Assembly: GCA_963422735.1 (NCBI GenBank)
Contig: OY730476.1
Coordinates: forward strand, 4,544,001 to 4,608,000
Direction: 5' to 3'
Source: Candidatus Latescibacterota bacterium
GTDB lineage: Bacteria > Latescibacterota > UBA2968 > UBA8231
DNA: 64,000 nucleotides
Below are positions 25,000-28,214 of this stretch, piece after piece (the stretch's first letter is position 1; every line of letters begins with the position of its first letter). A model generated the notes under the pieces. The model ran no database searches, had not been told where the DNA came from, and was given only the letters and a program-made list of their open reading frames with translations. The translations under genes and the position numbers were made by a program.

Positions 25000-25099
25000 G
25001 CGGGGCTGGCGATCGCCCCCGATCTGGATCGCAAAGCCGATGGGCTTCCGCGTCAATCTCTCCGACGCGGAAGCCGTGTATCGCGTCTTGGACCAATGA
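25000..25099 (+). pseudogene. Antitoxin (VapB-like) C-terminal remnant
   Basis: WIAKPMGFRVNLSDAEAVYRVLDQ* ends 6 nt before a PIN gene; 5' part missing. Confidence 0.55.
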
Positions 25100-25105
25100 C
25101 TACCC

Positions 25106-25509
25106 ATGAGCTACTCCTTGGACGTCAACCTCCTTCTCTATTCGTCGGACGCCTCCAGTCCGTTCCACGCGAAAGCCAAGAGCTTTCTTGAATCCTGCAT
25201 GAGTCGGAGCGACGTGCTCTATCTAAGTTGGCCGACGATAATGAGTTACCTGTGCATTGCCACGCATCCATCCATCTTCGATGAGTCGCTGACGCCCGAA
25301 GATGCCTGCTCAATCTGCCCAATTCTCGCTGTCTAGCCGAAAAAGACGGATTCTGGGAGACATGGCGTGAGACATCCGTGCGTGGAAACTTGGTGCCGGA
25401 TGCACACCTCGCCGCGCTTCTTCGCTTCCATGGGGTGCGTCGGCTGTACACGCACGACCGAGATTATCAAAGATTCGATTTCCTCGATGTACAGGACCCA
25501 CTAGCTTGA
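25106..25509 (+). pseudogene. vapC: VapC/PIN-domain toxin, frameshifted
   Basis: YSLDVNLLLY..SPFH..IATHPSIF, then in a different frame GNLVPDAHLAALL..LYTHDRDYQRF. Confidence 0.85.
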
Positions 25510-25544
25510 CACTTGATGAACAAAAACGCTCCACCGCCGGGGGA

Positions 25545-25877
25545 ATGGCACCCGTTACCGACTCGCTCCTCGATCAGATGGTCCAGGCCATTGTCGAAGA
25601 GGTCGATCCCGAGCAGGTGATCCTCTTCGGCTCTCGCGCCCGCGGCGACGCACGGGAAGATTCGGATGTCGATCTGGTGGTGGTGGCCGAGCCGTTTGGC
25701 CCGGAGCGAAGTCGTCGCCGGGAACTAGTCAGGCTCTACCACGCGCTGGTGGAATTTCCCGTCCCCGCCGACATTCTCGTTTACTCTCACGACGATGTTG
25801 ACTACTGGCGCGACTCCCTCAATCACGTTCTGGCGCGGGCGCTGCGGGAAGGGAAGGTGCTCTATGAGCGACGTTAA
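25545..25877 (+). CDS. Minimal nucleotidyltransferase (MNT antitoxin)
   Basis: VILFGSRARGDAREDSDVDLVVV; C-terminal EGKVLYE overlaps the HEPN start. Confidence 0.9.
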   Translation: MAPVTDSLLDQMVQAIVEEVDPEQVILFGSRARGDAREDSDVDLVVVAEPFGPERSRRRELVRLYHALVEFPVPADILVYSHDDVDYWRDSLNHVLARALREGKVLYERR

Positions 25878-26341
25878 ATGCGCGAGGATGCTGCTCGATG
25901 CGGCTGAGCGCGATGTCGCGGCCCTTCGGGTCATGTGTCGATCCGACGAAATCTCCGACGAGATTTTCGGCTTTCACGTGCAGCAGGCTGCCGAGAAGCT
26001 ATTCAAAGCTTGGCTCGCAGTGCTGGACCGGCTATGCGCTTGCTGCGGGGATTGAGGGCGACGATAGCGCCGAGAAGCTATTCAAAGCTTGGCTCGCAGT
26101 GCTGGGCGAGGTGTATCCGCTAACCCACAATATCGAAAGATTGTTCGATCTCCTCGCCGACCAAGGCGTCTTTGTGGAGCCCTTCCGCAAGCTGATTGAT
26201 TACACTCCATACGCCGTCGAGTTTTGCTATACAGGTGTTGACTCAAGTACCGAAGCAATCGATCGCGCTGGTGCGCTCGCGATCGTCGAATCGTTGCTGG
26301 AACAGGTCCAGCGGCGGCTGGCAGAGGTGGAGGGGGTGTGA
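25864..26341 (+). pseudogene. HEPN-domain protein interrupted by a 79-bp duplication/insertion
   Basis: GFHVQQAAEKLFKAWL and YPLTHNIERL lie in different frames. Removing 79 bp gives an intact 399-nt ORF. Confidence 0.88.
25990..26105 (+). repeat. Perfect 37-bp direct repeat flanking a unique 42-bp insert
   Basis: GCCGAGAAGCTATTCAAAGCTTGGCTCGCAGTGCTGG at 25990-26026 and 26069-26105; insert at 26027-26068. Confidence 0.95.
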
Positions 26342-26525
26342 TGGAGCAACTGCTAGCGGGTAGGGGTTGCTCTGTCTGGCTATTGGCTAGCACAACTTCT
26401 CTATAATTTCAAAATGAAAGCAGCTAGCCGGAGTGGGGCCGGCGGCAGCTTCCACGGCACGGCTGTGGAGAGGGAGCGAATGACCTGCGGCGGGCCGATT
26501 TTGTTAGGGGGCAGCGTTCACCCGC

Positions 26526-28214
26526 CTAGTACGACCGCAGCGTCCGCCCCAACTCCTCGGCCTCTATCCACTTCCGCAACACGGCACCAGAGCGCGCCAG
26601 CAACGTTCGATAGGGCCGCCCCAACGTCTTGTTTTTTGGGTTTTTTCCCGACAGCCGCGGCACGGCGTTGAACCGTCCTCGCACCTCGACGATATTGCGG
26701 CTCGGATTGTGCACGGCAATCGTCAATACCCGTGCGCTGTGGCCCTCCGCATCGACCTGCATGGACCACACCGACTTGCTGCCCCGCCGGCAGTTGGACA
26801 CATAGGAGGCGACGCAGTGATTCATCGCCCGTCCTTCAAGCGCGAGTTCCTTTTTGGAAGTAAGCTCGCGGATGGTCCAACGCAGCTCCTCTTCTTTGTC
26901 GTCCATCCACTCAAAGTTAGCTATGCCCGACGCCTCCCAACTCCCTGCGGGCTGGCGGTTATCGCGGGCTAGGCATTCGTGCCACTCATCGACTTGGCGC
27001 AGGAGCTTGACCGCGCTGCGTCCCTTCATGGTGTAGTTAGGCTGCGGCGGCTCTCTTTCCTCTGTGGGGACGTACTTCTGGTGGTTGATATAATCGACGA
27101 TTGGCCCCACCATATCCGGGTCGAGCATCTGGTTTTCCACGAGGAAGAGTACGACCGTGCTCCAGAAGGATTCCTCGGCGAAACCGCGACCCAATTCCGT
27201 GGCTACCACGGCCTGAGCCAGCGCCTCGCTGCCCCCTTGCCCCACCACCTGTGCCCAGCGCAGGGCCTCGGTCGCCGTCAGTTCGCTTGGTGCCTCAGCA
27301 AAGACATGTGCCATGCGCTTGGAGAGCACAAGCGGCAGGTCGGCCGTGCGGATGTTTTGTCCGCTGCCCACGTGGACGAACCACCCTTGCTGGCGTTGGG
27401 CCTGTGGTCCCCAGCCACCGAACCACACCGAATCCAAGCAGGCCGGCACGTCGTAGCGGGTCAATAGGAATCGAACCAGCGCGGCGAATTGCCGCCGGGG
27501 GTTGCGGCTGTCTGGCTTCCACTCGGCCGGTGACTGCTGCCAGACGCGGCTGTGCCGCGCCAACGCGCCGAGGGCCTCGACGAAGGTGTTGCCCTCCACC
27601 CGCCCCAAGCGCTGGAGAGCTGGCCGCGCGTCGAGCAGGTTGGCCGCGCGCTTCTCTACGTGCAAGAGCAAATCCCGTAGCTGCGCCCGCTGGTTGCCCG
27701 CCAAGCCCGCAAAGGCCCGATAGATCAGGCGCAGGACCTCGGTGCGCAGATCTTCCTCGGCGAGGGTTCCGGCCCAGAGCTGGAGGACGAGGTCTTTGGT
27801 GCGCCGGCTGTGCTTGCGGCCCTCGTGCAGGACTTGAGTGCTCTGTACTTGCTGGTGGAGCTTGAGTTCCTTGCTGCGCTGGGCTGCGCTTTTGTAGATG
27901 GCGTCGCCGATCCCCTGTTGCCGACACCACGTCTGGTAGGCGGCCACCCCGTCTAACCCTAGTTGTGCAATGTGTTGCCTAAAGGCTTCTTCGACTTGGG
28001 CGGCTCGTTGGTCGCGCTGGTGCGCCGTGCGCTCTTGCCGCCGCTCCTGCCAAGTCTTGCTCAGGGCTGCGCTAAACCCGTGCTGGCGGCACCAGACCTT
28101 GTAGGCTTCAATGGCCTCTAGGCCCAGCGACTCTATATGTGCGCCCAACTCGGCATTGGCACGCGCGGTGGCACCCCGCCGCCGTCCCTTTTTGCGCTTG
28201 GGGCGTTTAGCCAT
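26526..28214 (-). CDS. PcfJ-domain protein with repeated N-terminal module
   Basis: C-terminal VDEWH..IRELTSKKELALEGRAMNHCVASY..LTIAV..VEVRGRFN; N-terminal HI..LGL....AY..WCRQ.G twice. Confidence 0.8.
   Translation of the reverse strand: MAKRPKRKKGRRRGATARANAELGAHIESLGLEAIEAYKVWCRQHGFSAALSKTWQERRQERTAHQRDQRAAQVEEAFRQHIAQLGLDGVAAYQTWCRQQGIGDAIYKSAAQRSKELKLHQQVQSTQVLHEGRKHSRRTKDLVLQLWAGTLAEEDLRTEVLRLIYRAFAGLAGNQRAQLRDLLLHVEKRAANLLDARPALQRLGRVEGNTFVEALGALARHSRVWQQSPAEWKPDSRNPRRQFAALVRFLLTRYDVPACLDSVWFGGWGPQAQRQQGWFVHVGSGQNIRTADLPLVLSKRMAHVFAEAPSELTATEALRWAQVVGQGGSEALAQAVVATELGRGFAEESFWSTVVLFLVENQMLDPDMVGPIVDYINHQKYVPTEEREPPQPNYTMKGRSAVKLLRQVDEWHECLARDNRQPAGSWEASGIANFEWMDDKEEELRWTIRELTSKKELALEGRAMNHCVASYVSNCRRGSKSVWSMQVDAEGHSARVLTIAVHNPSRNIVEVRGRFNAVPRLSGKNPKNKTLGRPYRTLLARSGAVLRKWIEAEELGRTLRSY

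Follow-up and report, generated by a model that had tools for sequence, protein, structure and literature searches.

A probable natural off-target Cas1-Cas2 integration in a HEPN gene of a Candidatus Latescibacterota bacterium

In 2018, Nivala, Shipman and Church (Nat Microbiol 3:310) reportedly described off-target integration and neo-CRISPR (clustered and regularly interspaced short palindromic repeats) units with over-expressed type I-E Cas1-Cas2 of Escherichia coli, a system with a 28-bp repeat and a 33-bp spacer. Here we report on a 64,000-nucleotide stretch of DNA from a Candidatus Latescibacterota bacterium (assembly GCA_963422735.1, contig OY730476.1), hereafter called the window, in which a HEPN gene is interrupted by a repeat-insert-repeat structure: an exact 37-bp duplication of its own coding sequence brackets 42 unrelated base pairs. 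This scar is probably the product of a natural off-target spacer integration by Cas1-Cas2. The window corresponds to C1:4544001-4608000 of a single-contig genome of 4,953,052 bases with 59.5% G+C; positions without a prefix are those of the window.

Passages of PMC7054753, PMC6698737 and bioRxiv 10.1101/148544 refer to off-target integration by the E. coli Cas1-Cas2 when over-expressed. In the passage of the last that treats the matter, its natural frequency is called unclear and the evidence in two other species "circumstantial" (bioRxiv 10.1101/148544). According to the abstract of PMC13769266, type III-A Cas1-Cas2 alone shows substantial off-target integration in vitro unless HU is added. 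Our literature searches on off-target Cas1-Cas2 integration returned no study of natural events among the matches listed.

As far as the E. coli neo-CRISPR units are described in these passages, the present structure resembles them in that a spacer-sized insert is flanked by a repeat-length duplication of non-CRISPR DNA, outside any array, in a genome with cas1-cas2. It differs from them in being a natural event with a 37-bp geometry, in a genome where a type III-B effector module adjoins cas1-cas2; the scar is fixed in the lineage, with empty sites in sister species, and no motif resembling the repeat or the leader was seen at its target. The in vitro systems are comparable in that Cas1-Cas2 alone integrates into non-CRISPR DNA, its fidelity being set, in the parts of these sources that deal with it, by repeat motifs and host factors such as HU. 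They differ in being plasmid assays. Insertion sequences (IS), transposons and casposons likewise leave a direct duplication around the inserted DNA, owing to staggered strand transfer. Their known target duplications measure about 2-15 bp and their inserts carry element ends and usually a transposase, whereas the HEPN gene shows a 37-bp duplication around a 42-bp coding fragment without inverted repeats at its ends, features that set it apart from a transposable element.

The interrupted HEPN gene and its empty sites

The scar and the two parts of the gene are arranged as follows.

25990-26026, no strand assigned: target duplication copy 1, 37 bp, 100% identical to copy 2
26027-26068, no strand assigned: spacer-like insert, 42 bp, without counterpart at orthologous loci
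26069-26105, no strand assigned: target duplication copy 2, 37 bp, 100% identical to copy 1
25864-26055, plus strand: 5' fragment of the HEPN gene (HEPN PF05168, E value 1.1e-4, profile positions 2-47 of 117)
26069-26341, plus strand: 3' fragment of the HEPN gene (HEPN PF05168, E value 2.7e-6, profile positions 35-114 of 117)

A search for direct repeats in 25000-27200 found one family only, with two 37-nt copies, 100% identical and spaced by 79. The exact 37-bp duplication around 42 unrelated bp, proposed in an earlier sequence-only reading of this DNA, is thereby borne out to the letter. The bases flanking the two copies differ on either side (T/C before, A/G after), and the duplication length is therefore exactly 37 bp. 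Across the 4.95-Mb genome, the scar holds the only two occurrences of the 37-mer and the only one of the 42-mer.

The 5' fragment has the orthologous start (MSDVKC...), runs through copy 1 and ends at a premature stop within the insert; the 3' fragment is out of frame relative to it. When 79 bp were cut out by coordinates, an open reading frame (ORF) of 399 nt was restored, which encodes the expected 132 amino acids (aa) with zero internal stops. The reconstructed protein is identical to the orthologue of a related genome (G019) at 115 of 130 aligned residues.

When 40 relatives were searched at the DNA level, HEPN orthologues at 87-88% identity turned up in three genomes (G019, G020 and G024). 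Each of these matches was split in two, with the pieces overlapping by one repeat unit. All four aligned relatives, these three and G002, possess a single 37-bp unit and no insert. Therefore, the scar is an insertion and not an ancestral structure. A further hint of an empty site comes from sequencing run X1, a related strain most of whose pieces are 95-99% alike: one of its contigs, placed at 85% likeness only, joins 26026 to 26122 with GCG between and thus lacks the insert, the second copy and 13 further bases.

Since the genome is a single-contig assembly whose method is not stated, and the exact repeat exceeds a short-read k-mer, an assembly or sequencing artefact had to be considered. In the short-read Logan contigs of runs X15 and X16, which belong to two studies, a 102-bp unitig matches 25997-26098 without a single difference; it starts inside copy 1, crosses the insert and ends in copy 2. 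Its depth equals that of the flanks (94 versus 87 and 492 versus 481, respectively), so the HEPN scar is not an assembly chimera. X15 or X16 is possibly the source of the assembly, and the two runs count as at most one independent confirmation; as the repeat is longer than the k-mer, a coexisting empty allele would not show in such contigs. This check concerned the HEPN scar, and the coverage of run X2 leaves out 25974-26383. Altogether the artefact is largely refuted and we consider it highly improbable.

The resident CRISPR-Cas system and the source of the insert

The genome has one Cas1 gene (Pfam Cas1, E value 3.7e-83), which contains no internal stops. The match to TIGR00287 covers the full model (positions 1-327, E value 1.1e-70), and Cas2 was recognised by TIGR01573 (E value 5.9e-14); both genes were thus found, at full length. 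Cas1 aligned end to end with the solved Cas1 7cr6 (E value 6.2e-47) and kept the GxEG, GFxH and LDLxEExR stretches, which presumably hold the catalytic residues. Judged by these matches, cas1-cas2 is apparently intact. Its neighbours encode Cmr2/Cas10, Cmr3 (just under the cut-off), Cmr4, Cmr5, a Cmr6-Cmr1 fusion, a CARF protein and a Uma2-family protein, while Cas6 lies beyond the array at the cas locus. The locus is of type III-B. Directly upstream of cmr2, at C1:895801-895950, we noticed three palindromic units (..TCCCCGCACGCGGGGATTGCTTG), each about 28-33 bp long and recurring every 60 bp or so, which may be a degenerate mini-array of another CRISPR type with a shorter repeat, or a regulatory repeat.

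Two CRISPR arrays are present.

C1:907079-908124: array 1, 14 exact 37-bp repeats and 13 spacers of 38, 43, 45, 43, 40, 36, 39, 40, 39, 41, 44, 40 and 40 bp
C1:3169196-3169447: array 2, 4 exact copies of a different 37-bp repeat, with spacers of 34, 35 and 35 bp

The 37 bp of the HEPN duplication equal the repeat length of both resident arrays. The array 1 repeat recurs in one of 30 genus relatives, G006, with 2 mismatches; the sister array there holds 69 clean spacers of 36-45 bp, among which 42 bp is the second commonest length (13/69). The insert falls within the 36-45 bp spacer range of array 1 and of the G006 array. Hence the agreement in length expected by the sequence-only reading exists on both sides, as the duplication has the length of a repeat and the insert that of a typical spacer.

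Further observations on array 1 can be added. Its last two spacers (C1:907971-908087) are identical 40-mers, and a repeat-spacer unit has therefore been duplicated at the trailer end. Compared with their own genome, the canonical spacers gave no self matches and hence no protospacers from which a protospacer-adjacent motif (PAM) could be read; type III systems often have no PAM. A 9-mer, GGGGATTGA, is common to the 42-bp insert (26045-26053) and the first CRISPR repeat (C1:907104-907112). Its chance was estimated by hand at about 0.4% per strand, and the sharing may be due to chance.

With regard to its origin, the insert is similar to a conserved part of a gene in the genome itself that encodes a 587-aa arylsulfatase (C1:2238471-2238512; sulfatase NCBIfam matches), to which it is identical at 39/42 positions, or 40/43 when one ambiguous junction base is counted. 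The orthologous stretch was compared in 21 genomes: the identity is 41/42 in G018, 40/42 in five genomes, 39/42 in five including its own, 38/42 in six and 36/42 in four, and 42/42 in none. At insert position 10 the own copy carries a T that occurs in none of the 20 relatives, and the X1 sulfatase contig carries the relatives' flank. No exact donor of the 42-mer was found in genome_contigs, nor any donor in metagenome_contigs and viral_contigs when one position was left open (Y); the only match to the Y-pattern was the G018 record, at 41/42. By these similarities the donor would be DNA from a strain or species related to this bacterium, or else the own arylsulfatase gene in an earlier allelic form.

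Chromosomal DNA in arrays has a parallel in the genus. In the G006 sister array (L070, G006:C2:950440-950553), a repeat truncated to 26 nt is followed by a 40-mer identical to a short-chain dehydrogenase gene of G006, matching both its own C2:353741-353780 and the G018 orthologue exactly. Chromosomal DNA of the genus therefore enters such arrays.

The 39/42 identity to an own gene is also what would be expected of a replication or repair accident, in which template switching or the capture of filler DNA, with fill-in of staggered ends, copied the cell's own DNA and matched the CRISPR lengths by coincidence. A template-switch donor with microhomology had been named beforehand as a finding that would speak against integration, and the similar own gene touches that point only formally. 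The genome contains no exact donor, the G018 orthologue is closer (41/42) than the own copy, and microhomology at the junctions amounts to 1 nt on the right, with 0 nt on the left. An identical donor within the genome, joined through microhomology, was thus not found. We regard such an accident as unlikely; more evidence on it came from the rest of the chromosome.

Sibling insertions and the genes that carry them

The genome was scanned for exact direct repeats with short gaps. Repeats like the HEPN scar are scarce: 10 were found genome-wide that are exact, two-copy, non-tandem, not of low complexity and at least 20 bp long, with a gap of 25-60 bp and outside both CRISPR arrays. Their lengths are 20, 22, 23, 23, 24, 27, 29, 36, 37 and 37 bp. 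The scan suggested by the sequence-only reading thus yielded further insertions with 37- and 36-bp duplications. The loci that merit attention are listed below.

C1:828788-828896: sibling event, exact 37-bp duplication with a 35-bp insert, in frame in an ORF of more than 1000 aa with NERD and protein-kinase domains
C1:2153867-2153987: sibling event, exact 36-bp duplication with a 49-bp heptamer-repeat insert, breaking a PhyH-family dioxygenase gene
C1:3918109-3918214: ambiguous event in a gene with a TaqI_C-like domain, either 29 bp exact with 40 bp, or 37 bp with 2 mismatches and 32 bp
C1:214912-214997: older insertion of 62 bp, made up of a 24-bp duplication and a 38-bp insert

The insertion at C1:2153867 is cleanly missing in 5/5 relatives. 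At C1:828788 all of the five relatives are shorter, by 60-75 bp, with less clean boundaries; for the 35-bp insert there, at C1:828825, no donor was found within 3 mismatches in 30 genus relatives, and none in viral_contigs. The heptamer-repeat insertion at C1:3918109 is missing in 3/3 relatives. In this case the heptamer phase of the insert favours the 29-bp reading, and the ends of the BLAST pieces favour the 37-bp reading. The older insertion is shared by G006, G043 and G021; G018, G045 and G046 lack it.

Other candidates were discarded. The 23+35 bp structure is native in 30/30 relatives, the 27+33 bp structure belongs to an intergenic block of repeats, 186 bp long, without counterpart in relatives, and the 20+40 bp structure and several longer ones are coding tandem repeats. 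The three-copy candidates at C1:2798328, 4873087 and 4183341 are plain tandem repeats. The 22+32 bp structure sits in a length-variable region.

Repeats of 36-37 bp are concentrated at spacer-like gaps. Among exact, non-tandem, non-low-complexity repeats of at least 20 bp outside the arrays, they account for 3/10 at gaps of 25-60 bp versus 1/48 at other gaps of 1-500 bp (one-sided Fisher p = 0.014), and this last one is a 45-bp tandem duplication. The three clean events have constant duplications (37, 37 and 36 bp) but variable inserts (42, 35 and 49 bp) and totals (79, 72 and 85 bp), a pattern predicted by a ruler on the target side and not by a process of constant total length. The invariant duplications, and their enrichment at spacer-like gaps only, likewise argue against the repair accident described above. 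In its favour stand the inserts at C1:2153867 and C1:3918109, which are like own heptamer tracts (over 40-49 bp the likeness is up to 94-98%), and the other duplication lengths, namely 24 bp at C1:214912 and possibly 29 bp at C1:3918112.

The heptamer DNA raises another explanation, that an integrase or mobile element of a type not described so far cuts about 37 bp apart, being tied for instance to heptamer repeats or REP-like elements, with no part played by CRISPR. Two of the four inserts are heptamer-repeat DNA, and the genome holds 76 tracts of period 7 (GGTTAGT, GGTCAGT and relatives, in both orientations; about 5 kb in total, e.g. C1:27342-27640, 952614-952771 and 4437247-4437413) as well as REP-like blocks. 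Some tracts lie beside REP-like units, as in the 186-bp intergenic block at C1:4096263-4096448, which is absent in relatives. Long flanking duplications, however, accompany only 2/76 tracts, so that the tracts are not a general class of insertions with long duplications. The 42-bp insert of the HEPN gene is moreover a coding fragment devoid of element features and inverted ends, and no transposase family is known to make 36-37-bp target duplications, although no search aimed at this was made. This explanation appears quite improbable to us, even more so than a repair accident.

The genes struck by the insertions are one of toxin type, a dioxygenase gene and two with defence-like domains (NERD and TaqI_C); one of the insertions is in frame. 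Insertions of this kind probably persist where they do little harm. In the window, the gene that precedes the HEPN gene is as follows.

25506-25877, plus strand: intact nucleotidyltransferase (MNT-type) gene, 123 aa (Polbeta PF18765, E value 3.3e-12; NTP_transf_2 PF01909, E value 4.3e-12)

This upstream gene overlaps the HEPN start by 14 bp, and the adjacency of a nucleotidyltransferase gene and a HEPN-domain gene makes the two an MNT-HEPN gene pair. The order of the genes and their overlap are as in toxin-antitoxin-like pairs of this type, and several paralogous pairs exist in relatives. The HEPN protein is of the PF05168 type and differs from such pairs in that no Rx4-6H motif was identified in it; on the strength of family membership, it may have been an active toxin which the insertion knocked out.

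Two side observations were made in the neighbourhood. The HEPN codon at 26225-26227 is TGC (Cys), in a stretch (EFRY) where 8/8 relatives and paralogues have Arg; the run X1 contigs have C at 26225, which gives CGC (Arg). Directly upstream of the nucleotidyltransferase gene, at 25106-25509, two short ORFs in different frames resemble the halves of a frameshifted PIN-domain gene, of which the 3' part alone matches Pfam PIN, weakly and below the cut-off (E value 0.014).

Probable off-target Cas1-Cas2 integration and its meaning

The HEPN scar is best explained by one complete spacer integration, performed by the cell's own Cas1-Cas2 on ordinary chromosomal DNA away from the leader end of an array. 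Following established Cas1-Cas2 chemistry, on which this scheme is modelled, both 3'-OH ends of a prespacer of about 42 bp, a fragment of a conserved arylsulfatase gene, would attack the strands of the HEPN gene 37 bp apart, with the stagger that is normally applied across one 37-bp CRISPR repeat. Gap repair would then copy 37 nt on each side, leaving the repeat-insert-repeat structure, a 79-bp insertion and a shift of the HEPN frame. The interpretation as a natural neo-CRISPR event, put forward in the sequence-only reading, gains support from cas1-cas2, the 37-bp repeats, the spacer lengths, the contigs across the junctions, the empty sites and the further 37- and 36-bp events, so that most of the checks it had named turned out in its favour. 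The same enzyme has probably acted at least twice more in this lineage, at the sites of the 37- and 36-bp duplications elsewhere in the chromosome.

Several points weigh against this interpretation. According to a passage of PMC6698737, off-target integration sites in vitro share features with the repeats (or the leader) in the systems studied, and P. furiosus off-target sites share repeat features in the text that describes them; none were detected here. Neither CRISPR repeat is related in sequence to the duplicated HEPN unit. Compared with both repeats in both orientations, the three target units agree at only 6-14 of 37 positions, where the null best-of-four has a mean of 11.8 and a 95th percentile of 15. 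Nor was any motif shared by the leader ends and the target sites seen by eye. The duplicated unit had been proposed to be palindromic, and the complementary blocks (CGAG-AAGCT-...-AGCTT-..-CTCG) do exist, but of 3000 random 37-mers drawn from the genome, 23% equal or exceed its fold energy as DNA, -5.3 kcal/mol. With the other two target units ranking at 7% and 85%, the hairpin potential of the targets is ordinary, and the palindrome was rejected as a recognition feature. Moreover, the 24-bp duplication at C1:214912 breaks the 37-bp ruler. At 35 and 49 bp, the sibling inserts miss the 36-45 bp span of the 82 canonical spacers by 1 and 4 bp, although, speculatively, the longer one would fit if a single heptamer had been gained by slippage (49 = 42 + 7). 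Finally, short tandem repeats resembling the own heptamer tracts make up two or three of the four inserts, which is not how canonical spacers look.

With these points taken into account, natural off-target integration by Cas1-Cas2 is still what we hold to be the probable origin of the HEPN scar. Self-derived prespacers placed outside arrays could persist because they are not made into guide RNAs, while in true arrays they would be selected against. We also put forward a wider proposal, for and against which we see about equal grounds: the type III-B Cas1-Cas2 may be a repeated endogenous insertional mutagen. It would have made three, perhaps four, independent, recent and lineage-specific integrations, into the HEPN gene, the PhyH-type dioxygenase gene, the NERD-kinase gene (in frame) and perhaps the TaqI_C-like gene, using self or near-self prespacers, heptamer tracts included, and needing no repeat-like target.

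Over-expressed or purified integrases have been shown to integrate off target, and little is known about the natural frequency of such events, the CRISPR types concerned, the targets or the captured DNA. The HEPN scar is best explained as a natural member of a kind known from experiments and rarely documented in nature. It offers a clean natural example, with an empty site in sister species, repeat and spacer lengths measured in the same genome, and sibling events in the same chromosome. On this explanation, the cost of an adaptation module would include broken genes, and the inserts would represent an unselected sample of prespacers, apparently self or near-self DNA, that bears on the discrimination of self from non-self at capture. 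A test across lineages suggests itself, in which the length of the duplication should track the length of the repeat. If the proposal of an insertional mutagen is true, one can read in natural genomes which DNA an unselected integrase captures and at which sites it inserts it, and such scars would be raw material for new arrays as well as a source of gene loss.

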